Below, piece by piece: positions 7,321 to 45,965 of a stretch of DNA of 46,042 nt (position 1 is the first letter of the stretch; each line of letters starts with the position of its first letter). This DNA comes from Holosporales bacterium (GTDB lineage: Bacteria; Pseudomonadota; Alphaproteobacteria; RUG11792). The stretch lies in contig JAIRYO010000039.1 of the NCBI GenBank assembly GCA_031267725.1, forward strand, positions 1-46,042, read 5' to 3'. The translations under genes and the position numbers were made by a program. Under the pieces are notes generated by a model. That model ran no database searches. It was not told where the DNA came from and was given only the letters and a program-made list of their open reading frames with translations.

Positions 7321-7391
7321 CATCCTCTGGATTGTGCCAAAAATATTCGCGATTTGCAAGTTAAAATGGAGTTTTTAAAATGGAATTTCAT

Positions 7392-19101: not shown

Positions 19102-19224
19102 ACTAGCCAAGAATTCAAGTGCGACTCTGAGCATTATATCACTTTTCTTAATTATAGAAAGAGCAATTAAAATAATGTCTGCGTTCACATACCCCAAGGT
19201 AAAAGAAGTGGAATTATTTTTTCC

Positions 19225-19471
19225 CATGACTCCAGCATGCCCCCTCCTGAATAGACCGTAAACCATGCTTAAATGATTTTTGTATTTTTTTTATAATGCT
19301 TTAGACCGGATATATAGCAATCTCTGAATATTACTTAGAGGAGTTGGTTATATATGTAAGGGGGGAAGGAGATGGGTTTACTCCCTATTCAGGTTGGGCC
19401 GCCGAAGTTATGGTTATTCATAGAAGAAAACTAACTTTGAATCTTTTGTCTCAAACTATATGAACGTATAC
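19225..19471. repeat. Composite repeat copy (arm + central module 19310-19370 + short arm + terminal module)
   Basis: ...CTGAATAGACCGTAAACCATGCTTAAATGATTTTTGTATTTTTTTTATAATGCTTTAGACCGGATATATAGCAATCTCTGAATATTACTTAGAGG...GGTTTACTCCCTATTCAGGTTGGGCCGCC...CTTTTGTCTCAAACTATATGAACGTATAC. Confidence 0.9.
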
Positions 19472-19573
19472 AAGTGTGAAAATTTTTATTGTTTTTACAG
19501 AGAGGGCATGTTAATGTTAATTGTAATATGGGGTGGTTTTTCGTAACTGATTTCTTCTGGGGAGGGGATAGTC

Positions 19574-21298
19574 GTGAATTTAAGATATGTACTGAAGTGT
19601 ATGTTCATCTGTATGGTTTTCACCAGTCCGGGACTTCCTGCTTTTTCCGGAGAAGATCCCGATATCAAGAAATTAAAAGAAGCTGATGAAAATTTACAGT
19701 CCGAAATTGCCACCATCAAGAATATTAATGAAAATTTAGAAGCTGAAACTCAAAGTTTGAAAAATACCATAAAGGAGATGAAATCAAAGCTCGAAGAGAC
19801 AGAGGATAGTTTTGAAAAGAAGTTGGATACAATTGATAAAAAGTTGGGGAGCAATGAAGAAGAGATGGAGCAGCTAAACTCACTTCAGGAAAAAGTTGCT
19901 AAAATAGAAGAGGGGACAAGGGCTCCAGAAAGTAATGAACAAATTGAACAATTAACTCAGAAATTGGATAAATTAGAAACTGATATTCAGGCTATATCAG
20001 CTAATGAAGACTCTGATGAGGAATTAAAAAATATAAAAGAGTCTTTAAATTCAGTGACTCAACAACTTGAAAATCAGAAAAACTTTGATGAACAACAAAA
20101 CATAGAGTCCGCAAAAAGCTCTGCAAGGCTTGATAAACTCGAAAGAACGAATGGAGCCGCCGTAATTGGAGCGGCCGGAGCTTCTGTTGGGGGGCTGCTA
20201 GGATCGGTTGTCAAAGAAGGTTTTGGAATTTTATCGCAAAAACTCGAGGTGGACTCCATAAAAGAGCAGCTGCTGAATGGTAACTCCACCATAACCTTAT
20301 CGGAGAACATGACTAAGGAAGAGAAAAAAGAACTTGAGGAGATAGAGTCTGATATACGTAACGGAAAAAGCGATCAGGAAATTCAAGCAAAACTAGATAT
20401 TTTAAAAGATGAAATTGAGAATAGAGAAAAATTACAATCCAGATTTCAACGAGCGACTTTTTATGGGGTGAACCAATCCTTCAAGGATGAAAGCATCATA
20501 ATTCACTTGTTAAACCAAGCTCGCCTAGGCCACAAAATCCCCCCAGAGACAATATTAACGGGAAATATAAATTCGGTTGATGTCGATTTAATAAATACGA
20601 TATACGAGATGGGAGTGCAAAACGCTACGATATTTGATATTTATGATGCCATAAAGCTGATATTCACCGGATCACCGAAAAAAATAATAGTAAAGCAACC
20701 AGATAAATCCACTATTGCCCAACAAAGTGCTAATGGAGCAGTAGTACAGGAGGGGGGAACCATAGCTCCTGGTTCTGCTTCAGAAGCTTCTGTTCAAGGT
20801 GGAGCTGTTCCTCAAGCATCTTCAGTTCAACCTGTTGTTCAACAAAGTACTAGTGGAGCAGTAGTACAGGCTGGAGGAACTATAGTTCCTGGTTCTGCTG
20901 AAGCTTCTGTTCAAGGTGGAGCTATCCCTCAAGCATCTTCAGTTCAACCTGTTGTTCAACAAAGTACTAGTGGAGCAGTAGTACAGGCTGGAGGGACTAT
21001 AGCTCCTGGTTCTGCTTCAACCCTTCAAAAACCTGTAAAAAATGGAAAAACTCCCGAGCAAAGACAGGCTATTTCCAAATCGGATTCGAATATAGCTTTG
21101 GAAAAAAGAAGGCTAGACATGACGGTTATGGACGTAAAGGATAACAGGTATTACGATGTTGAAAGACAAAAATTTGAGCAAATTGCTCAGTCGTCCAAGC
21201 GGTACCCAGAAACGAAAGTGGTGCCACCAACAAATATGGAAGTAAGACCAATTGACCAGGCATCATCCGCTAATTTAAACTTACTTAGCAAGGATTGA
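19574..21298 (+). CDS. Hypothetical secreted coiled-coil protein with a Gly-zipper segment and C-terminal 39/40-aa tandem repeats
   Basis: 574 aa. The GTG start is preceded by GGAGGGG. It has a signal peptide (CMFICMVFTSPGLPAFSG), about 170 aa of E/K/L-rich heptad-like sequence, NGAAVIGAAGASVGGLLGSVV, and then 2.5 copies of QQSTSGAVVQAGGTI(A/V)PGSAEASVQGGA(I/V)PQASSVQPVV. Confidence 0.7.
   Translation: MNLRYVLKCMFICMVFTSPGLPAFSGEDPDIKKLKEADENLQSEIATIKNINENLEAETQSLKNTIKEMKSKLEETEDSFEKKLDTIDKKLGSNEEEMEQLNSLQEKVAKIEEGTRAPESNEQIEQLTQKLDKLETDIQAISANEDSDEELKNIKESLNSVTQQLENQKNFDEQQNIESAKSSARLDKLERTNGAAVIGAAGASVGGLLGSVVKEGFGILSQKLEVDSIKEQLLNGNSTITLSENMTKEEKKELEEIESDIRNGKSDQEIQAKLDILKDEIENREKLQSRFQRATFYGVNQSFKDESIIIHLLNQARLGHKIPPETILTGNINSVDVDLINTIYEMGVQNATIFDIYDAIKLIFTGSPKKIIVKQPDKSTIAQQSANGAVVQEGGTIAPGSASEASVQGGAVPQASSVQPVVQQSTSGAVVQAGGTIVPGSAEASVQGGAIPQASSVQPVVQQSTSGAVVQAGGTIAPGSASTLQKPVKNGKTPEQRQAISKSDSNIALEKRRLDMTVMDVKDNRYYDVERQKFEQIAQSSKRYPETKVVPPTNMEVRPIDQASSANLNLLSKD
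20720..21019 (+). repeat. In-frame tandem repeat, 120 + 117 + ~63 bp
   Basis: Units start with CAACAAAGT(G/A)CTA(A/G)TGGAGCAGTAGTACAGG at 20720, 20840 and 20957. Units 2 and 3 are nearly identical. Unit 1 has a 3-bp insertion and a few substitutions. Confidence 0.9.
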
Positions 21299-23729: not shown

Positions 23730-23773
23730 ATTTGTCCATTTCTAATTCTGTATTGAATTTGAAAGTTAGTTTT

Positions 23774-24370
23774 CGTCTATTAATAACTCTGAATCCTGAA
23801 TAGGCAGTAAAACCATGCTTCAATGATTCGTGTATTTCTTTCTCTTCATCCTTTCCTTTTAAAGCTTGAACAAGGCGATCGAACTCAAACATAAAATGTT
23901 CCACGTGGAACAATTGATTTAAAAGCTTGAGAACCACTCGGCCAGCCTCAACCTTAACATGACTCAGGCGGCCCAGTCTGAATAGACCGTAAACCATGCT
24001 TAAATGATTTTTGTATTTTTTTTATAATGCTTTAGACAGGATATATATAAGCACTCTCTTCACCGTTTTATATATGATTACCAATCCCTCTAAGTAATAT
24101 TCAGAGATTGCTATATATCATGCTTAAAGCATTATAAAAAGAAATACAAAAATCATTGGGGCATGGTTTACGGTCTATTCAGACTGGGCCGCCTGAGTCA
24201 TGTTATGTTTGAGGCTGGCCGAGAGGTTCTCAAGCTTTAACAGGAAAGGATGAAGAGAAAGAAATACTCAAATCATTGAGATATGGTTTAGGGTCTATTC
24301 AGGCTGGGGCAGGCAGGATTCATGGCGAAAAGTAATTCCACATCTTTTGTCTCACATCTGTTTGAACTTA
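23774..24370. repeat. ~600-bp nested palindrome of the composite repeat family (centre module 24041-24118)
   Basis: The left arm (23790-24040) and right arm (24119-24330) are reverse complements. The exception is a 61-bp segment carrying GTTCCACGTGGAAC (23898-23911), present only on the left arm. The right end carries the terminal-module variant AAGTAATTCCACATCTTTTGTCTCACATCTGTTTGAACTT. Confidence 0.92.
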
Positions 24371-24393
24371 CACACATATTGTAAATATCTTGG

Positions 24394-25703: not shown

Positions 25704-26738
25704 CTCTATGAATAACCATGACTCCCGCATGGCCCAGCCTGAATAGAGAGGCTGTATTGTAATCTTCCGATGAGGATATATAAGCAATCTATGAATATTG
25801 CTTAGAGGGGTTGGTAATATATGTAAGAAGTGAAGAGATTGCTTATATACATCTTATCTAAAGCATCGTAAAAAAATACAAAAATAATTGGGGCATGGTT
25901 TACTGCCTATTCAGGTTAGGTCATGCGGGAGTCATGTTGTGTTTGAGGCCAGCCGGATGGTTCAAGCTTTTAAGCGATTGTTCCATAACCATGAATCCGG
26001 CAGCTCAGCCTGAATAGGTAGTAACCCTTGCCCCCCCCTATAGCAACAAAACTCTTCTGATGATTCTCATTCTTTGTTTGTACTTAAGTCTAGCAAGGTA
26101 GTGTTTTCCTGTCCTAAACAGGCTGAAACAAGTCCCCAATGATTTTTGTATTTTTTTACAATGCTTTAAACGGGACATATAGCACTCTCTTCACCCTTTC
26201 CTATTAAAACCTTGAACCACTCGGCCGGCATCAAACATAACCTGAATTCGGCGGCCCAGTCTGGATAGACCGTAAACTATGCTTAAATGATTTTTGTATT
26301 TTTTTTATAATGCTTTAGACAGGATATATAAAGCAATCTTTTCACCTTTATATAATAGATTACCAACCCCTCTAAGTAATATTCAGAGATTGCTATATAT
26401 CATGCTTAAAGCATTATAAAAAGAAATACAAAAATCATTGGGGCATGGTTTACGATCTATTCAGACTGGGCCATGCAGGGTTCAGGTTATGTTTGAGTCC
26501 GGCTGAGTGGTTCTAAAGTTTTTAGGCATTCGTTGAACATTTATGCTTTAGGCCAGCCGGATGGTTCAAGCTTTTAAGCGATTGTTCCAGATGAGACATC
26601 TACGTTTGATGCTATCAGTGGCTCAATCTTAAATTGCTATGTATACCCCACCATTTAAGTATGGTTTACTCCCTGTTCAGGCTGGGCCATGCAGGAGTCA
26701 GAGTTATTGGATGAAAAGTAACTTCACACCTTTTGTTA
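25704..26738. repeat. ~1-kb repeat-only region: several juxtaposed or nested copies of the composite repeat (central modules at 25775-25850 and 26324-26400)
   Basis: Multiple CTGAATAG..GTAAACCATGC / GCATGGTTTAC..CTATTCAG units, half GTTCCA modules (GATTGTTCCATAACC, GATTGTTCCAGATGAG) and AAGCTTTTAAGCGATTG duplicated at ~25966 and ~26568. No ORF of convincing length. Confidence 0.9.
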
Positions 26739-31526: not shown

Positions 31527-32103
31527 AATTTATAAAATTATCCAAACCTGGTAGGATTGTAGCATATGAAATTTAAATAGATCAACTTAGATTTAGAATA
31601 TCTTTAAATCCCGCAAGGGCTTTTAATTCTCCAATATTATTTTAATAGCTTGTTTATGAAAGCGTGAGTACCAAGCTCTCATTTCAGTGATAGATTATCC
31701 ATTTGGATACAAGGAGCACGGCTAGACTCTCATTAGAGAAACCATTATTTTAGTTTAAGGACTAATTGACGCTTACTCAGTTACGGCAAAAGGTATAACT
31801 AGGAATCCTAGATGGCTATTAATAATTGTTCCACGTGGAACAATTGTTACCGGAATGCTTTAATGCTTTATCTTATCTATGATGTGGGAAAGAAGATGAA
31901 AGAACAACGCACACATTATAACGAGCAGTGAGGCTAATATTGTACTATAACAGAATCATAAGCTGCAAGAATTAAATCGGGTTTAAAAAAAATTGTTCGA
32001 GATTAGATATGAAATCTGCATTTTTGACCAATTTGTATCATCTATTTGCTTTCCATTTTGTACACTAAATTTGTGACCTTTTAGTTCGATTTCAATACGT
32101 AGT

Positions 32104-33573
32104 ATGTTTTTCAACTTAAAAAATCTAAGACAGTATTTTTTTGTTATATGCATACTAATCGTTAGCTCCATTATAAACAAAGGAAAGGCGATGCAGAACG
32201 ACGAGGATTCCTTAGGGAGTGCATGCGTTCGTCTTTTGGCAATTAGCGAAATGGGCGCGTTATACCCTAAAGAAGTTTGGCCATTGCCACAACTACAAAT
32301 TCAACAAGTATCATCCGATAAGAAGCCTTCCAATAAAAATGAACAGAATTTGAAGTTTATTAGATTCAAGTTGGAGTATGGGGCGCGATTGGAAGAAATA
32401 ATCAGGCAAAATAATAACAAAGACCCCCGTGAAAACATGTATGAGTATCTCTTTTTTAGTCTTCCAAACAGTGCTTCCTTGTTAAAAGAGAAAGTTAAAA
32501 CTCCTTTTGATAAAATTATCAAAGGTATTCAAGAAATTCTAAAATTCGGAGTAAAGAGATATGAAAAAGATGACAAAACACCTAGTATGGTGCGCCGTGG
32601 AGAGAAACTTAAAAATACCATCTTAAAAAATCCCAATCTAAAATCGCAAATAGGGAAGCGGTTACCGGTGATATTAGAAAAGGAAATACGATTCTTGAAA
32701 CTAATTTTTAAATATTCTTCTTTTTTATTTGAGGCTCACGATTTTGGAAAATCAATTTTTGAAATTGTAAAAAAATCGATAAATCTTTTTGACATTAATA
32801 AAACGAATGAATGTTTACAGGAGATTAAAAATCAGTTTCTTCAAGTTGAAGGAAGGTTAATTTCGGAGTACGAACGTATAAAAGGAGAAGATCAAGTATT
32901 TGCGCTTCTCGAAAATTCCTGTTTCCTCTCTTATTCACCTTCTCCCTCTTTAATTCCTCATTTTTTGTGTCTTTTTAGAGAAGCTGAGACAAATGCGCAT
33001 TATTTGGTATATTTTTTATCAAAATTTTTTGGGGCATTATATAATCCCTTCGAACGAATAGAGTTTTTTGATTTAAGTTATAATTTAGCTGATTATGTAA
33101 AAAGCTGTTTTATACAATCGGAGCTTATGATGACCCTCGAACAACGTAAAGAATTATTTGCAAATTTAGTTAAGGAAAAATTAAAAAAATCAGACGTCAA
33201 GATTTTTTCTCCAATTTCTGATTTTTCAGAAGAGGATGAGCCTAATGAGGGACAAGCGGCTCTTTCCAATGAAGCTTTTTTTCCATCTTCTGATCTAAAA
33301 AAAGAACCTTTCCCTTCCTATAATGAAAGACAAGAGGATTTTTCCAATGAAGCTTTTCCTACTGATGTAAAAGAGGAATATAATGAAACTCCTTCGCCCT
33401 TTTCCGGCATAAAAAAACCGCTAGAAGAAATTCTTTTCTCACCTCCCGATATTAAAGAGTCTCCTTTTCCGGAAGATATTTTGCAGAATCCTAGTTCAAA
33501 TCAGAATCCACCTTCGCGCTTTGCTTCAATGAGCAAGAATGAGTTTCTCTCCTATCTATCCAATGAAACTTAA
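32104..33573 (+). CDS. Hypothetical protein with an acidic, Pro/Phe/Ser-rich C-terminal tail
   Basis: 489-aa ORF with an N-terminal hydrophobic segment (YFFVICILIVSSII) if the ATG at 32104 is used. An alternative ATG at 32191 is preceded by AAAGGAAAGG. The last ~120 aa are rich in E/P/F/S with recurring (E/D)xFP / PFP motifs. No family recognised. Confidence 0.6.
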   Translation: MFFNLKNLRQYFFVICILIVSSIINKGKAMQNDEDSLGSACVRLLAISEMGALYPKEVWPLPQLQIQQVSSDKKPSNKNEQNLKFIRFKLEYGARLEEIIRQNNNKDPRENMYEYLFFSLPNSASLLKEKVKTPFDKIIKGIQEILKFGVKRYEKDDKTPSMVRRGEKLKNTILKNPNLKSQIGKRLPVILEKEIRFLKLIFKYSSFLFEAHDFGKSIFEIVKKSINLFDINKTNECLQEIKNQFLQVEGRLISEYERIKGEDQVFALLENSCFLSYSPSPSLIPHFLCLFREAETNAHYLVYFLSKFFGALYNPFERIEFFDLSYNLADYVKSCFIQSELMMTLEQRKELFANLVKEKLKKSDVKIFSPISDFSEEDEPNEGQAALSNEAFFPSSDLKKEPFPSYNERQEDFSNEAFPTDVKEEYNETPSPFSGIKKPLEEILFSPPDIKESPFPEDILQNPSSNQNPPSRFASMSKNEFLSYLSNET

Positions 33574-33628: not shown

Positions 33629-35611
33629 TTACATTCCCAATAAAGCCCCTAACCCCGGTTTTTTGGATGCGATACCCGTATCTACCTCTTTTAAAAAAGT
33701 CTTTTCAGCTACACTTTCGTCATTAGACAAAAGCTTTAAAAAAAACATCTTGGCAATCCTAGCAGGTATTCTGCCTCCAGTTGATGTTTCAATCATTTTT
33801 TGCCTATTTATGTCGTTTCCGATCCATACCCCCATCGAAAATCCACTATTTTTGTCATCTGGCGGATCGTAAAACCCGACAAACCAAGCATCCGTATTTC
33901 CATTTGTTCCGGTCTTTCCGTATATATGGGCATTAACATTAACCGCTCTACCTGTCCCATTTTTTACGACGTTTCTTAATAAGGCTTTACACGAAATTAG
34001 CGCTTCTTCATCTATGATAGGCAGAATTTTTTCTTTATTTTTCTGAAACAAAATATCTCCAGACTTCGTTTGAATTTCAGTAATGCAATACGGCCAAATT
34101 GGAATTCCATCCATAAACGATGTGTATGCAGAGGTGATATCTTTCAGAGTTACCGGAGTAGTTCCTATTGCGACGCTCATGTCATGGATTGATACATCAA
34201 ATATTCCGAGTTTTTTTGCGAATTTAGAAACTCTTTCTAGTCCTATAAATTGAGCCAATCTGATACTAACCGTATTAACTGAATGAGTAAAACCATCAAG
34301 GAGTGAAATTTCGCCACGACTTTTCCATTTATAGTTTTTAGGTCTCCAATTAGATATGGATATCGGCTCATCCGATATTTTATCTTCTAGTTGAAAACCA
34401 TATTCTATTGCTGCTCCATAAACAAAAATTTTAAATGCTGATCCAGGTAACCTATTTGCCTGAACAGCCCTATTAAATTGGGTTGCAGAGTATTTTGTCC
34501 CTCCAACCATTGCTAAGATTGCCCCATCTCTATTTAAGCAAATAAATGAAGCTTCGGAAAATTTATAATTATCTCCTTCAGTTTTTACGTAAAAATCAAC
34601 AGATGCTTCTGCAGCCGTCTGTTTTTTATCATCCAAAGTGGTGATAATCACTATATCGTCTTCAATTTCTCCGAGAATTTTCTTTGCTTGTTCATACGCG
34701 TAATCGCAAAAATACATGCAGTTCTGATCTTGTTGAGGGCTGTTAGCAAAAGCACTTTTTGCCTGTTTTTTCTCTATCTCTTTAGCATCTTTTATATATC
34801 CCTGTTCTTCCATCATTTTTAGTACAACAAGAGCGCGTTCATAAGCGTAATTGGGATGATTTCCTGGGTTATACTTAGTCGGAGCTTTTAGCAATCCAGC
34901 CAATATCGCGGCTTCAAAGATAGATAATTTAGTTGAGGATTTGTTGAAATATTTGCGAGAGGCAGCATCTATCCCATACGTACCAGCTCCGAAGTAGACT
35001 CTATTTATGTATAACATCATTATATCTGCTTTACTAAATCTATATTCAAGCCAAAAGGCGAGTAAAAGTTCCTTTATCTTTCTTTTAATTGTTTTATCGT
35101 AATGTGTGATGATTCCCTCAGCAATCAATATATTTTTTGCGAGTTGTTGAGTTATTGTTGACCCCCCCTGAATAACCTTGCGGGCAATATAGTTTTGGTA
35201 AATTGCTCTACAAAATCCTATAAAATCTATGCCAAAGTGATGGAAGAACCTTTTGTCCTCAATGGCTATAAACGCTTCTGGCACATATTTAGGCAGGTCT
35301 TCAAGCTTCACGAGCTCTTCATATAAATCTCCATAGGTGCCTAAAATTTTTCCATCATAAGTTTGTATAGTAACTCCAGGGAACCTGATTTCTGTTTTTA
35401 AGTTTTTAAGATCCGGAAGCCCATTTGCAAAGTATAACAAAACGACGCTGAACGAGACTAAGCCGCAAACGAAGAGACATAAACAATGCCTGAAAAATAT
35501 TCTTAAAAATGATTTTTTCTTTTTTTTTATAGGACGAGTCTTAGCTCTCATTAATGTTTGGAATCGACTCGGCCACCAGGGCAGTTTAGCAGCATACAGT
35601 CTTAAAAACAA
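33629..35611 (-). CDS. mrcA: Class A penicillin-binding protein (PBP1A-type transglycosylase/transpeptidase)
   Basis: GT51 motifs EDKRFFHHFGIDF and GGSTITQQLAKN. Transpeptidase motifs SAFK (GSAFKIFVYG), SVN (HSVNTV) and KTGT. It has an N-terminal TM anchor. The start is possibly at MRAKTRPIKKKK (35551). Confidence 0.93.
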   Translation of the reverse strand: MFLRLYAAKLPWWPSRFQTLMRAKTRPIKKKKKSFLRIFFRHCLCLFVCGLVSFSVVLLYFANGLPDLKNLKTEIRFPGVTIQTYDGKILGTYGDLYEELVKLEDLPKYVPEAFIAIEDKRFFHHFGIDFIGFCRAIYQNYIARKVIQGGSTITQQLAKNILIAEGIITHYDKTIKRKIKELLLAFWLEYRFSKADIMMLYINRVYFGAGTYGIDAASRKYFNKSSTKLSIFEAAILAGLLKAPTKYNPGNHPNYAYERALVVLKMMEEQGYIKDAKEIEKKQAKSAFANSPQQDQNCMYFCDYAYEQAKKILGEIEDDIVIITTLDDKKQTAAEASVDFYVKTEGDNYKFSEASFICLNRDGAILAMVGGTKYSATQFNRAVQANRLPGSAFKIFVYGAAIEYGFQLEDKISDEPISISNWRPKNYKWKSRGEISLLDGFTHSVNTVSIRLAQFIGLERVSKFAKKLGIFDVSIHDMSVAIGTTPVTLKDITSAYTSFMDGIPIWPYCITEIQTKSGDILFQKNKEKILPIIDEEALISCKALLRNVVKNGTGRAVNVNAHIYGKTGTNGNTDAWFVGFYDPPDDKNSGFSMGVWIGNDINRQKMIETSTGGRIPARIAKMFFLKLLSNDESVAEKTFLKEVDTGIASKKPGLGALLGM

Positions 35612-35631
35612 CTCTTTTTCCGATTATGTCT

Positions 35632-36333
35632 GCGTTCATATGATTTTGGACAAAAGGGGCGAGATTACTTTTGTCTAACAACCCCGAATCCTGCCTGCCC
35701 CAGCCTGAATAGGCAGTAAACCATGCTTAAATGATTTGTGTATTTCTTTCTCTTCATCCTTTTCTATTAAAGCTTGAACAAGGCGGCCAGCCTCAAACAT
35801 AAAATGTTCCACGTGGAACAATTGTTTAAAACCTTAGGCCCCTCGGCCAGCCTCAAACATAACATGACTCAGGCGGCCCAGTCTAAATAGACCGTAAACC
35901 ATGCTTAAATGATTTTTGTATTTTTTTTATAATGCTTTAGACAGGATATATAAAGCAATCTCTTCACCTTATATATAATAGATTACCACCCCCTCTAAAC
36001 CATATTCAGAGATTGCTATATATCATGCTTAAAGCATTATAAAAAGAAATACAAAAATCATTGGGGCATGGTTTACGGTCTATTTAGACTGGGCCGCCTG
36101 AGTCATGTTATGTTTGAGGCTGGCCGAGGGGCCTAAGGTTTTAAACAATTGTTCCACGTGGAACATTTATGTTTGAGTTCGGCCGCCTTGTTCAAGCTTT
36201 AATAGAAAAGGATGAAGAGAAAGAAATACACGAATCATTGAAGTATGGTTTAGGGTCTATTCAGGCTTGACCAGGCAGGAGTCAGGAAAAGCAACTCCCC
36301 CTCTCTTTTCCCTCAGGCTATGTGAACATATAC
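35632..36333. repeat. ~700-bp near-perfect nested palindrome of the composite repeat family (centre module ~35946-36023)
   Basis: Terminal modules lie at both ends (GCGTTCATATGATTTTGGACAAAAGG / ...CAGGCTATGTGAACATATAC). 35806-35880 is the exact reverse complement of 36090-36164 (75 nt, checked base by base). Each arm carries two CTGAATAG..GTAAACCATGC units and one GTTCCACGTGGAAC (35806-35819, 36151-36164). Confidence 0.95.
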
Positions 36334-36488
36334 ACTAAAAAGAAAGATAAAAATTATTTTTAATGATATGATGAAGGTGAAGTTTATAACTCTAACTCGT
36401 ATTCATAAAGTAAAATTTTTACTGCAAAATGAATGTGTATTTAAATGTACTTACGAAACGACGTTTTTTATGAGGTGATAATAAATCG

Positions 36489-37970
36489 ATGAAAGAATAT
36501 TTAACTATATCAGCTGTAAGAAATGGGTTGAAAAGCGGAGAGTTTACCTCTGTTGAATTGACCGAGTATTATCTCAAAAAAATGGATGCAATGGCGGATC
36601 TTAACGCATTTATAACTATCGATTCGGAAAAATCAATTGATTGCGCTAAAGCGGCAGATAAAAAAATTTCAAAAGGAGAAAATAAGCCGCTTCTTGGGGT
36701 TCCACTTGCAATTAAAGATTTGTTTTGCACTAAAGGAACGAGAACTACAGCTGGATCTAAAATGCTTTCGAATTTCATTCCAGAATATGAGTCAACAGTA
36801 ACTCAGAACCTGATTGATGATGGGGCGATTTTTATTGGGAAAACCAATATGGACGAATTTGCAATGGGCTCCGCCAATATAACGAGCTATTTTGGTCCAT
36901 GTTTTTTGCCATACAGAAAGAAAACATCTCCAGAGATGAAATTAGTTCCCGGAGGATCCTCTGGTGGATCTGCAACATCCGTCGCATCTGATTTGTGCGT
37001 TGCCGCAACCGGATCTGATACTGGCGGGTCAATAAGACAACCTGCTGCCTTTTCCGGTATTGTGGGTATAAAGCCAACTTATGGCCTCTGTTCAAGATGG
37101 GGAATGGTGGCTTTTGCTTCCTCGCTAGATCAAGCTGGACCATTGACTAAAAACATTGAAGATGCAGCTATTATGTTACAGTCAATGGCTGGATATGATG
37201 ATAAAGATTCAACTTCGGAAAACATAAAAATTCCGAATTATCTTGATTTTTTGGGAAAATCTATAAAAGGCATGAGAATCGGAATTGCTAAGGAATATAC
37301 TGATGGAATAAATCAGGAAAATGTGGAATTACTCGAAAATGTTAAGACTTGGCTTGTTGATGCTGGATGTGAAATTATAGACATTTCTCTTAAAACTACC
37401 CCTTATGCTCTTCCTGTTTATTATATAATTGCCCCCGCAGAAGCTTCCTCTAATCTTGCTAGGTATGACGGTGTTAAGTATGGATACCGTTCTAAAAATT
37501 ATAAAAACATTGATGAGTTGTATATTAACTCCAGATCTGAAGGATTCGGAGAAGAAGTCAAGAGAAGAATTTTGACTGGAACATATGTTCTATCTGCGGG
37601 ATACCATGATGCTTATTACACAAAAGCTCTAAAAATCCAACAAATGATAAAAGATGATTTTAAAGATAATGCATTTTCTAAAATTGATTTAATTTTATGT
37701 CCAACTACTCCTAATACAGCTTTTGGCGTTGAGGAATCGAGTAAAATGTCTCCTGTTGAAATGTATTTAAACGACGTATTTACCGTTAATGCGAATATAG
37801 CTGGCCTTCCTGCTATTTCCATACCGACCGGTTTATCAAAAGATGGACTTCCAATGGGAATTCAGGTAATTGGAAACAGGTTTTGTGAAGCGGACATATT
37901 CAAAGTTTCTTACGTGATAGAAAAATCCGCTTGTTTCGAAGAGTTGAGGAAGAAAATCCTCCTGGTGTAG
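36489..37970 (+). CDS. gatA: Glutamyl-tRNA(Gln)/aspartyl-tRNA(Asn) amidotransferase subunit A
   Basis: Amidase signature GGSSGGSATSVASDLCVAATGSDTGGSIRQPAAFSGIVGIKPTYG, at a typical GatA length of 493 aa. No gatC or gatB is adjacent. Confidence 0.96.
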   Translation: MKEYLTISAVRNGLKSGEFTSVELTEYYLKKMDAMADLNAFITIDSEKSIDCAKAADKKISKGENKPLLGVPLAIKDLFCTKGTRTTAGSKMLSNFIPEYESTVTQNLIDDGAIFIGKTNMDEFAMGSANITSYFGPCFLPYRKKTSPEMKLVPGGSSGGSATSVASDLCVAATGSDTGGSIRQPAAFSGIVGIKPTYGLCSRWGMVAFASSLDQAGPLTKNIEDAAIMLQSMAGYDDKDSTSENIKIPNYLDFLGKSIKGMRIGIAKEYTDGINQENVELLENVKTWLVDAGCEIIDISLKTTPYALPVYYIIAPAEASSNLARYDGVKYGYRSKNYKNIDELYINSRSEGFGEEVKRRILTGTYVLSAGYHDAYYTKALKIQQMIKDDFKDNAFSKIDLILCPTTPNTAFGVEESSKMSPVEMYLNDVFTVNANIAGLPAISIPTGLSKDGLPMGIQVIGNRFCEADIFKVSYVIEKSACFEELRKKILLV

Positions 37971-38002
37971 CCCGTATCGGCTTTAACTTCCCTCTTATTT
38001 AA

Positions 38003-38063
38003 CCCCAGTTTCACATAAGAGCCCCATTTTTTGTAAAGTTATTAAACTTTTACGAAACTGGGG
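38003..38063. terminator. Candidate bidirectional terminator / structured element between convergent genes
   Basis: CCCCAGTTTC (38003-38012) pairs with GAAACTGGGG (38054-38063). The ~41-nt interval holds a second small hairpin (GTAAAGTT...AACTTTTAC) and a T-run. It lies between gatA (+) and the 134-aa ORF (-). Confidence 0.3.
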
Positions 38064-38162
38064 GGAATACTCGTTCGTTTCAGCCTCGCCAGCTGCATCC
38101 CCCTCAAATCAAGTGTTGTTTGAAGATATTTTCAAAACCTTGGAATCGTGCCCCTCTCAGAA

Positions 38163-38567
38163 TTACACATTTTGCACTGTTTCACTTACAGCTTCAAGAT
38201 CTTCAGCAATCTGCTCAAGCTGAGCTTTATATCCTAAAAACCCCACCTTCAAGGCGCCAACTTCTTCAGTCTCCCAATCTCTCGTTTCCAGTGTTAGTGT
38301 TAATAATCTTATTTCTTGATTTAGTTTTTCTATCTCCAAATCTCTCGCTTTCAGTGTTGATGTTAATAATCCTATTTCTTGATTTAACGAATTTATCTTT
38401 CGTTGAAATGCTTCTAACTGTCCCTTTATTGATAAAACGTTTCTGTTTATTTGCTCAAATATTTTCTTATCGTTGCCCTTTTCTATTTGGAAATTGCCTG
38501 TGGCATATACATTCATTCCAGTGACTATCATTACAAAAAGCGCCAGTAACGGCCTATTCAATTTCAT
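38163..38567 (-). CDS. Small secreted coiled-coil protein with an internal 21-aa tandem repeat
   Basis: 134 aa. An SD-like AAAAGGGG lies ~8 nt upstream of the ATG. It has a signal peptide (LLALFVMIVTGMNVYA|TG) and heptad-like LNQEI(G/R)LLT(S/L)TL(K/E)(A/T)RD(L/W)E(I/T)E repeats. It is preferred over the mirror ORF 38120-38524 (+), which is low-complexity and has no signal or SD. Confidence 0.55.
   Translation of the reverse strand: MKLNRPLLALFVMIVTGMNVYATGNFQIEKGNDKKIFEQINRNVLSIKGQLEAFQRKINSLNQEIGLLTSTLKARDLEIEKLNQEIRLLTLTLETRDWETEEVGALKVGFLGYKAQLEQIAEDLEAVSETVQNV
38271..38396 (-). repeat. In-frame 63-bp tandem duplication (2 units)
   Basis: Unit 1 (38271-38333) is CTCCCAATCTCTCGTTTCCAGTGTTAGTGTTAATAATCTTATTTCTTGATTTAGTTTTTCTAT. 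Unit 2 (38334-38396) is CTCCAAATCTCTCGCTTTCAGTGTTGATGTTAATAATCCTATTTCTTGATTTAACGAATTTAT. Confidence 0.85.
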
Positions 38568-38709
38568 AACTAAACCCCTTTTCTCAAAAATAAATCTCTA
38601 AGTGATGGGGGAAAGTATATTAAAATTTACATAAAAAGTAAAATATTTATCTCATCTCGTATAAAAATATTAGTTATTTATTACTAAAGGGAATGTTATA
38701 GTCTTCAAA

Positions 38710-38951
38710 CATGACTCTTGCCTGCCTCATCCTGAATAGACAGTAAACCATGCTTCAATGATTCGTGTATTTCTTTCTACAATGCTTTAAGCATGATATA
38801 TAGCAATCTTAGAATATTGTTTAGAGGGTTTGATAATCTGTATACAAAGGGGGGGGGAGTCTATTCAGGGGAAGTCGCCGGAGTAATGTTATGTTTGCGG
38901 CTGGCGGATGGTTCAAGCTTTTAAACAAAATGTTCCACGTGGAACATTTTG
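38710..38951. repeat. Composite repeat copy (arm + central module ~38795-38850 + 26-bp perfect palindrome 38926-38951)
   Basis: ...CTGAATAGACAGTAAACCATGCTTCAATGATTCGTGTATTTCTTT...GATATATAGCAATCTTAGAATATTGTTTAGAGGG...GGTTCAAGCTTTTAAACAAAATGTTCCACGTGGAACATTTTG. Confidence 0.85.
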
Positions 38952-38963
38952 ATTTTTTTAATG

Positions 38964-45836: not shown

Positions 45837-45925
45837 TCACGCACCGTTCGATAATAACCTATCACTCATGCTAATGTAAATTTATTTTACAAAAAACGTA
45901 CGAGTTCACATGATTGGAGGCATTA

Positions 45926-45965
45926 TCCCACGTGGAACATTAGATGCTCCACGTGAAAAATTGTT
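45926..45965. repeat. Two degenerate copies of the CACGTG palindrome core
   Basis: ATCCCACGTGGAACATTAGATGCTCCACGTGAAAAATTG. Compare the consensus GTTCCACGTGGAACATT. Confidence 0.5.

Follow-up and report, generated by a model that had tools for sequence, protein, structure and literature searches.

Several classes of short intergenic repeat that fold into hairpins have been described in bacteria, and they provide the frame for reading a 708-bp interrupted palindrome found at positions 35627 to 36334 of contig JAIRYO010000039.1 (assembly GCA_031267725.1), a stretch of 46,042 nucleotides from a Holosporales bacterium that is called the window hereafter, where it lies between the genes for a class-A penicillin-binding protein, PBP1A, and for GatA. 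The BOX elements of Streptococcus pneumoniae (boxA - boxB(n) - boxC) resemble it as composite, modular intergenic repeats whose end modules pair and whose internal module is iterated in variable number, as well as by a size of several hundred bp (67-637 bp for BOX), a predicted stem-loop and properties recalling those of miniature inverted-repeat transposable elements, or MITEs (PMC3049150). The BIMEs of enterobacteria, with their REP units, and the NIMEs of Neisseria, made of RS blocks and dRS3, are likewise mosaics of motifs that fill spacers, where a short palindrome punctuates the blocks, and they have been tied to genome rearrangement (PMC3049150, PMC3184786, PMC1797815). REP sequences are G+C-rich hairpins of 20-40 nt that go with a RAYT gene, whereas the modules considered here are A+T-rich and 50-70 nt long and no RAYT gene is encoded in the window; the sequences of both dRS3 and REP also differ from TGTTCCACGTGGAACA, the small palindrome of the present element. 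REP units often start with GTAG and occur in inverted pairs, while MITEs usually stay below 200-400 bp. As for the Correia elements, which are MITEs, the likeness lies in the terminal inverted repeats, a non-coding core, dispersed intergenic copies, folding into a long hairpin and possible promoter-like hexamers (PMC2649163, PMC3184786, PMC2229807).

The element between PBP1A and gatA, designated below as the 36-kb element from its place in the window, belongs to the MITE/BOX/BIME-like class of intergenic repeats, in which it is set apart from the named families by their descriptions, searches having found no relative. Within the window it is probably the largest and most intact copy of an intergenic repeat family that is modular, hairpin-forming and specific to this lineage. 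From a side-by-side reading of the copies, its modules come in the order T-U-X-S1-pal-[S2-U-centre-U'-S2']-pal-S1'-X'-U'-T', where pal is the 16-bp perfect palindrome TGTTCCACGTGGAACA. Repeats of this family cover 4394 of the 8917 intergenic nt of the window (49%) and occupy at least 12 spacers with unrelated flanks, a dispersal that is expected of a MITE; these spacers are divergent, tandem and convergent alike. No copy lies inside a gene, the only genic repeats being two unrelated in-frame tandem arrays. Regarding the single motifs, the S core was matched 18 times where 0.02 matches were expected (i.e. at least 18 S units), the U core 11 times (0 expected), the small palindrome 10 times, namely seven exact occurrences and three with 1-3 mismatches (0.06 expected), the terminal motif 6 times (0.1 expected) and the centre core GATATATAGCAATCTCTGAATAT 9 times. 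In addition, the 708 nt folded as single-stranded DNA reach -296.6 kcal/mol, compared with -73 +/- 4 for shuffled sequences, so that by its fold and by its motif counts the 36-kb structure is far beyond chance.

Two other loci of the window carry a comparable palindrome. The sister composite at 23773-24375 (+), between uvrC and the gene of an MFS transporter, aligns with the 36-kb element in direct orientation (35704-36131 with 23795-24226, 92.2% identity over 434 columns), and the inner palindrome occurs a third time, enlarged by additional S units and with conserved arm-type states, at 26113-26736 (+) (35826-36200 with 26204-26574, 85.7% over 378 columns). For all copies in the window, left arms were aligned with right arms in reverse complement, and identity within loci was compared with that between loci. 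Over the 45 columns nearest the centre, left arms agree at 44/44 and right arms at 45/45 across the 36-, 24- and 26-kb copies, as against 38/45 between left and right at each of the three loci. Seven of these columns are fixed by arm type at all three (e.g. TTA vs CCC, -/C, GAC vs AGC, G vs T), and arm-specific states are likewise common to the 36-kb and 24-kb copies in their outer U units (GGCAGT..CATGC on one arm, ACCCT..CATA on the other). Since arm-type differences are fixed at three loci, the palindrome must be older than its copies and have been copied whole, as a unit.

The arms of the 36-kb element stand in another relation to each other in S2. There, left and right agree at 53/53, compared with 45-47/55 between either of them and the S2 arms at 24 kb, while arm-to-arm agreement at the other loci (48/55 at 24 kb, 42/57 at 26 kb) is no closer than that between arms of different loci. 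Among 125 aligned columns comprising S2 and the inner U, four changes private to the 36-kb locus (35836, 35837, 35841 and 35885) occur on both arms and none on one arm only, and a fifth symmetric private change lies at 35763, outside these columns. By comparison, the 24-kb copy has no symmetric and two one-armed private changes, and the 26-kb copy one symmetric and ten one-armed; the ratio of symmetric to one-armed changes is therefore 4:0 at 36 kb vs 1:12 elsewhere (P about 0.002, hand-computed hypergeometric). The original prediction had named homogenisation of the arms against each other as one of two possibilities, and these figures bear it out for this locus; arm homogenisation is a property of the 36-kb copy, not of the repeat family. 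Its proposal to compare arms within and between loci, carried out inside the window, gave a divided answer, S2 being closer within the 36-kb locus and the centre-proximal part closer between loci. Similarly, the variants it had described as private to the locus and present on both arms are real when set against all arms of the window, except that only the T at 35763 of CCTTTTCTATTAAAGC is private and that TATTAAAGC is found elsewhere too.

The tract concerned reaches from 35738 to 35904 on the left side, is 163/167 identical to the reverse complement of its partner at 36066-36231 and holds the 103-nt perfect arm as well as all the locus-private symmetric variants. The economical reading is that of one recent arm-to-arm copying event, which would have covered at least 35763-35904 and at most 35738-35904. 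Besides, the core of the left S1 (35785-35802) shares its sequence, GGCCAGCCTCAAACATAA, with the S2 core that lies 60 nt further downstream (35845-35862), while the right S1 (36167-36184) keeps the GGCCGAAC form (GAAC) seen at 24 kb and 11 kb, which suggests a second small conversion, this time probably involving two direct repeats of a single arm. It is documented that inverted repeats can have their arms homogenised, and their spacers inverted, by template switching and gene conversion (PMC8604942, PMC13100816, PMC8794818, PMC7202029). In an element at 19 kb, the centre turns towards the left-type arm the face opposite to that seen at 36, 24 and 26 kb; such an inversion of the spacer is the expected outcome when inverted arms recombine or take part in template switching. 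The inverted centre, the derived variants present on both arms and the perfect tract flanked by older asymmetries are all explained by quasipalindrome correction, template-switch homogenisation or gene conversion between inverted repeats; unlike here, where the tract has about 125-167 nt, documented template-switch events mostly concern inverted repeats of tens of nt. Template switching and RecA-dependent arm conversion would leave the same sequence and are equally possible.

What the copies display, then, is a dispersed, modular family confined to intergenic DNA, with inverted termini, propagation as a unit, decay of the copies and one recent symmetrisation. As to how it came about, the whole composite was propagated between loci as a unit, as shown by the 92% identity of the 24-kb copy and the arm-type differences fixed at three loci. 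It would most likely have spread in the manner of a MITE, non-autonomously and through mobilisation in trans, with recombination at short motifs common to the modules as an aid. After dispersal, the copies decay by substitutions and deletions. Finally, a tract of about 125-167 nt of one arm of the 36-kb element was recently copied onto the other, presumably by gene conversion or replication template switching, and to this copying are due the perfect arms of 103 nt as well as the private variants of both sides.

The inverted repeat announced by the original prediction is indeed present between PBP1A and gatA, with its axis at 35985, and so is the exact reverse complementarity of 35806-35880 and 36090-36164, the perfect arms even reaching 103 nt (35802-35904 and 36066-36168). 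Repeat finding returned inner arms of 127 nt at 97% identity (35802-35928 and 36042-36168) and outer arms of 121 nt at 88% (35683-35803 and 36166-36286), and in a BLAST comparison with its own reverse complement 35683-36286 was 87.5% identical over 608 columns; a global alignment of the left half with the right half, terminal modules and centre included, gave 81%. From outside to inside, the paired modules are identical at 60% for the terminal modules, 81% for the outer U units, 93% for X+S1, 100% for the 16-bp palindrome, 96-100% for S2 and 89% for the inner U units, and the 115-nt centre is self-complementary at 80/120 (about 67%). The description of the palindrome as near-perfect is consequently exact for the 103-nt arms but not from end to end, where the terminal modules, the outer U units and the centre depart from symmetry. 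The perfect arms are separated by 161 nt, within which lies the asymmetric centre of about 115 nt. Nor does the palindrome, although it lies in the spacer, fill the whole of it. To judge from translation of its upstream region, PBP1A most likely has its start codon, an ATG, at 35551 (the protein would begin MRAKTRPIKKKKK.., with a membrane helix next), so that the spacer extends from about 35552 to 36488, and with this start about 75 nt of unique sequence remain on the left of the element and 155 nt on the right. The two U copies per arm that had been noticed (CTGAATAG..AATGATT..GTATTT) are indeed there, 51-53 nt long and 81-88% identical, and the internal palindrome of each arm is perfect as stated, with a length of 16 bp (TGTTCCACGTGGAACA) instead of 14 bp. 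Regarding the fold, a branched cruciform had been proposed, but the predicted minimum-energy structure is a single, long, unbranched hairpin with a terminal loop of 44 nt; folded as RNA, the 708 nt are predicted to reach -469 kcal/mol. At Rfam gathering thresholds only tRNAs were found in the window, and permissive thresholds added far-sub-threshold plant miRNA hairpin models, which is a generic effect of long hairpins. In a sigma-70 promoter scan nothing passed in the 36-kb element, which holds inward-facing TATAAT boxes with poor -35 partners; it contains no open reading frame (ORF) of at least 50 aa, and GANTC (CcrM) sites are only 1.6-fold enriched in the repeats.

On the left side the element begins with the terminal module T-L at 35627-35698 (+), which opens with TGTCTGCGTTCATATG, the terminal inverted repeat of the family, and includes a small hairpin, GACAAAAG..CTTTTGTC; by BLAST, similarity to other copies has its left limit at 35633. 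Then come the left outer U at 35699-35749 (+) (CCCAGCCTGAATAGGCAGTAAACCATGCTTAAATGATTTGTGTATTTCTTT), a member of both direct and inverted repeats whose arm-specific states are those of the 24-kb left arm, and X+S1 at 35750-35804 (+) (CTCTTCATCC..TTAAAGCTTGAAC..GGCCAGCCTCAAACATAAAA), identical to its right partner at 51/55 positions and matching 10950-11024 and 11003-11073 at 88-93%. The left copy of the 16-bp palindrome (35805-35820) precedes S2 at 35821-35876 (+), with the locus-private TTAGGCCCCTCGG and the symmetric changes at 35836, 35837 and 35841, and the left inner U at 35877-35927 (+), of an L-type (..CATGCTTAAATGATTTTTGTATTT-TTTT) and carrying the private symmetric A at 35885. In the asymmetric centre (35928-36042, +), a core of about 45 nt that is not palindromic, written GATATATAGCAATCTCTGAATAT.., is flanked by short inverted repeats (TATAATGCTTTA.., ATATAAAGCAATCTCT / AGAGATTGCTATATAT). 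On the right side, read on the - strand, follow the R-type inner U at 36043-36095, with CCCCAAT, an extra C and AAGCATG, then S2 at 36096-36149 (CCGAGGGGCCTAA, the mirror of the left variant), the right copy of TGTTCCACGTGGAACA at 36150-36165, S1+X at 36166-36219 with GGCCGAACTCAAACAT kept as in the 24-kb and 11-kb copies, and the outer U at 36220-36272, 81% identical to the left one and in the arm states of the 24-kb right arm. The right terminal module T-R (36273-36334, -) is 60% identical to T-L and ends in ..CTATGTGAACATATACA, the reverse complement of the terminal repeat, the terminal motif lying at 36318-36334 with two mismatches and similarity to other copies ceasing at 36335. As modules, T begins with TGTMTRCGTTCAYATAG, U can be written CCTGAATAGNNNGTAAACCATGC..AATGATTTTTGTATTT (about 51 nt) and S TTAAAGCTTGAAC..GGCCAGCCTCAAACATAA (about 60 nt), the last being iterated 1-3 times per arm in numbers that vary among copies; the small palindrome, centred on CACGTG and 16-28 bp long, sits at S-S junctions, some of which carry a version lacking the central 7 nt. 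An outer shell, T-U-X-S1-pal...pal-S1'-X'-U'-T', encloses S2-U-centre-U'-S2', with the small palindrome at each boundary.

The shell also exists alone. At 10907-11123 is a relative with X-S1-palindrome-S1'-X' around a single 30-bp perfect palindrome and no inner module, and because it matches both outer halves of the 36-kb element (88-93%) the large palindrome reads as a nested composite rather than as a single duplication. A simpler member, 297 bp at 19176-19472, is the one with the inverted centre and has both terminal repeats. TGTMTRCGTTCAYATAG is inverted at both ends of this member (19176 and 19472(-)) and of the 36-kb element (35627 and 36334(-)); it recurs at 7391, 12180, 15190(-), 17271(-) and about 504(-), and five other copies have it at a single end. 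Copies are truncated at 0.2, 7.4 and 14.7 kb; the composite at 0.2 kb (186-505) aligns in inverted orientation (191-490, 87.7% over 309 columns). The 24-kb composite has arms of its own of 102 nt at 93%, its right arm having lost S1 and the 16-bp palindrome when 75 nt were deleted between direct repeats of TTAAAGCTTGA. On the right this composite ends at 24375, only 19 nt from the ATG of the MFS ORF (24394), which places the promoter of this gene either within the repeat or far upstream. A supposed insertion of about 105 nt in a U unit at 26.03-26.15 kb was rejected, as it consists of two adjacent degenerate U units. Both ends of the contig lie near repeats, one of them near the composite (186-505) and the other near a pair of degenerate CACGTG palindromes (45924-45960), which is consistent with an assembly break at longer or more similar copies of the family.

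The host is an uncultured Holosporales-like alphaproteobacterium, and the contig is endosymbiont-like. For GatA, the best named relatives are metagenome-assembled Holosporales with up to 76% identity, and the closest proteins reach 77-80%. Eleven loci from five related lineages (L019-L023 and L049-L054, 153 kb in all, GatA 75-80% identical) were searched by BLAST and nhmmer with all repeats of the window, and only the small palindrome was found; these relatives have compact spacers and, in the 153 kb sampled, no repeat family of their own. Searches with the U core gave 18 single-match loci among one genome per GTDB species and 25 in JGI metagenomes, none with extended similarity, and BLAST of the whole element against plasmid and phage collections gave no match. 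By the collections and relatives searched, the repeat family is lineage-specific. In the five relatives the order PFK-SH3-RNase J-(APH)-gatA-gatB is conserved, while in the window (35552-38963) PBP1A lies upstream of gatA, gatB is missing downstream, and repeats occupy both junctions, at 35627-36334 and 38685-38950. This fits rearrangement breakpoints at repeats, a chimeric assembly join being the residual possibility; the relatives are not syntenic at the PBP1A-gatA spacer, hence offer no empty-site comparison.

Among the described families, the parallel with BOX can be drawn module by module, T and U corresponding to boxA and boxC and the 60-nt S units to boxB, given that T/U pairs flank one to three S units per arm at a 60-nt period. 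It differs from BOX in being a nested palindrome, where U units pair in two concentric sets around an asymmetric centre that is conserved, in the lack of a target-site duplication, in the Holosporales-like alphaproteobacterial host and presumably in sequence, since searches with the whole element or its core motif brought up no relative. Unlike Correia elements, which measure 100-155 bp with 26-bp terminal repeats and TA duplications, the family ranges over 300-708 bp with other termini and no such duplication.

Several points weigh against our interpretation of the 36-kb element as the most intact copy of a propagated family. A strict MITE assignment is hindered by the lack of target-site duplications, none being consistent at the nine termini inspected, by the lack of a known parent insertion sequence with TGTATACGTTCATATAG ends, and by size, since 708 bp exceeds what is usual for MITEs, the simple member at 19176-19472 having about 300 bp. 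No transposase is encoded in the window, whose sole recombinase is an ordinary housekeeping-type XerD. Many copies are mosaic or truncated, a pattern that recombinational shuffling could give without true transposition. The contrast between arm-type and locus-private differences comes from three full palindromes only (36, 24 and 26 kb), i.e. small numbers, and private means private within the 46-kb window. Lastly, the assembly is known from the contig sequence alone. This last point opens the way to an artefact, in which an assembler walking along repeats would have made the palindrome or the PBP1A-gatA join; the window does look like a metagenomic contig with both ends near repeat copies, and both gatA junctions break the gene order of five relatives and carry repeats. 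Such an origin is nevertheless very improbable, since in three independent palindromes the centre faces the same way with respect to the arm markers, inner as well as outer, the outer arms differ from each other in a way that excludes a simple fold-back, and ordinary reads span both the longest exact repeat between loci (87 nt) and the arms (103 nt). Still harder to credit is the birth of the palindrome at this very locus, which the original prediction had offered as its second option, through an inverted duplication in which one arm, already bearing the private variants, was copied: it would account for the 103-nt perfect arms and the symmetric private variants, but it is contradicted by the left/right differences, centre-proximal as well as in the outer U, that the independent 24-kb and 26-kb copies have in common with the 36-kb one, and a complete composite exists at 24 kb.

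A functional role of the long hairpin, with pairing under selection, would make the double-armed variants compensatory, the structure acting either as RNA (RNase III substrate, terminator or insulator) or as a DNA cruciform. The extreme predicted stability of the hairpin, the four changes present on both sides of the stem at 36 kb and the symmetric variant of the small palindrome in one relative (GTTTCACGTGAAAC in L049) speak for it, and comparable Correia and BOX elements affect expression and RNA processing (PMC2649163, PMC3049150). We nonetheless hold it to be unlikely: the sister copies gain unpaired changes (ten one-armed private ones at 26 kb) and one of them has lost 75 nt of a single arm, which makes selection for pairing a poor explanation, and copies occur irrespective of spacer orientation. 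Transition mismatches have no strand bias either (G.U 6 on the + strand and 3 on the - strand; i.e. 6 G.U vs 3 A.C arm mismatches by hand count, not significant), no Rfam family matches beyond the sub-threshold plant miRNA hairpins, and for covariation in the terminal-module and centre hairpins the informative changes are too few. The modules might instead be cassettes swapped at the small palindrome by a tyrosine-type site-specific recombinase, the 36-kb locus being an occupied and the 11-kb locus an empty site. The inner module does lie between two palindromes, of which the outer half-sites match the 11-kb site and the inner ones the solitary palindrome at 31828; moreover, the palindrome is solitary in relatives, and S units are delimited by it or by the copy lacking 7 nt. 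The half-site pattern would follow trivially, though, were the palindrome arms no more than the two extremities of S units; in addition, the half-sites are presumably unlike the XerC/XerD arms of dif, and the XerD-like protein of the window is ordinary. We regard a cassette system as quite unlikely.

Long palindromes raise the question of their tolerance. A perfect palindrome of 460 bp kills E. coli when it sits in the chromosome and SbcCD is present, while the same arms set 20 bp apart, or 111-bp arms 24 bp apart, are tolerated unless recombination is defective, i.e. interrupted palindromes with arms of 111-230 bp and a central asymmetry of 20-24 bp; the authors ascribe lethality to central symmetry (PMC4245961). 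The 36-kb element resembles the lethal palindromes by its long arms (103 nt perfect, about 300 nt imperfect) and differs from them in lacking central symmetry. It had been supposed that retention of the palindrome implied a missing SbcCD/RecBCD pathway or active maintenance. The former does not follow, because the perfect arms are 161 nt apart around an asymmetric centre and E. coli already tolerates asymmetries of 20-24 bp; with about 115 nt of asymmetric centre, the interrupted palindrome needs no special tolerance mechanism. The latter is at odds with the decay of the sister copies (the 75-nt deletion at 24 kb, the S2 arms at 42/57 at 26 kb). No sbcCD, recBCD, addAB or ruv genes lie within the 46-kb window, which is uninformative on the rest of the genome. 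The current understanding of palindrome tolerance is thus not overturned, and there is no evidence for unusual repair biology.

The small CACGTG palindrome has a history of its own. Its TGTTCCACGTGGAACA core occurs in solitary form in the window at 31824-31848 (AATAATTGTTCCACGTGGAACAATTGTT), with no repeat module alongside, and it recurs in relatives, as GTTCCACGTGGAAC at 7322-7335 of L019, 25 nt upstream of gatB and again without a module, and as ATAAAATGTTTCACGTGAAACATTTTAT, a perfect 28-bp variant at 1548-1575 of L049, where it lies in a spacer, likewise free of modules, and shows C>T mirrored by G>A. Being solitary in relatives, the small palindrome is older than the composite elements. 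At 11 kb it has an 11-6-11 layout, ATAAAATGTTC CACGTG GAACATTTTAT, and the same layout is found in L049; this resembles the core site of a recombinase and may be taken as a lead, the layout alone defining no family. By this analogy, the small palindrome may be a protein-binding or recombination site. More speculatively, and in our opinion doubtfully, the CACGTG site could be an active hotspot of recombination or template switching from which elements grow and into which modules are inserted, in a lineage that would continuously build, nest and re-symmetrise long palindromes at this 11-6-11 site, a process that would drive its loss of gene order. Were this true, the lineage would have either a self-extending palindrome system or, on its chromosome, a counterpart to the cassette exchange of pdif modules or NIME/dRS3.

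Returning to the repeat family itself, its significance lies partly in the host, since in the poorly known, protist-associated Holosporales a single modular palindromic family makes up about half of the intergenic DNA in this lineage, sits at breaks of gene order and is absent from the sampled relatives with GatA at 75-80%. It also offers a natural example of long interrupted palindromes that propagate as units, decay and occasionally have one arm re-copied onto the other. For annotation, masking and modelling of these repeats should come first, ahead of any call of promoters, small RNAs or rearrangements in such genomes.

Concerning the surroundings, the flanking genes are those that had been named: the PBP1A gene, at 33629-35611 (-), has Transgly and Transpeptidase domain matches, and gatA, at 36489-37970 (+) and divergent from it, an Amidase match. 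The other ORFs of the window are housekeeping genes (lon, tatD, lptCAB, lpxA/fabZ, infC, greA, ispDF, uvrC, bioBFDA), besides the XerD-like recombinase and a T4-type terminase. The large subunit of the latter (9477-10745, -) adjoins the XerD-like tyrosine recombinase (11149-12096, -), which has repeat copies on both sides, and the pair (9477-12096) may be the remnant of a gene-transfer agent or prophage; a link between the repeats and the recombinase at 11.1-12.1 kb was considered and dropped, the protein being an ordinary XerD-like one. Two large ORFs have no Pfam/NCBIfam match, at 32104-33573 (489 aa) and 15325-16746 (473 aa). In the non-syntenic stretch after gatA, a 134-aa ORF at 38163-38567 (-), also without family match, contains a 63-nt tandem repeat in two copies (38270-38398), and an ORF of 574 aa at 19574-21298, again without Pfam/NCBIfam match, carries an in-frame 117-nt (39-codon) tandem repeat at 20720-21016, in 2.5 copies that are 92% identical.

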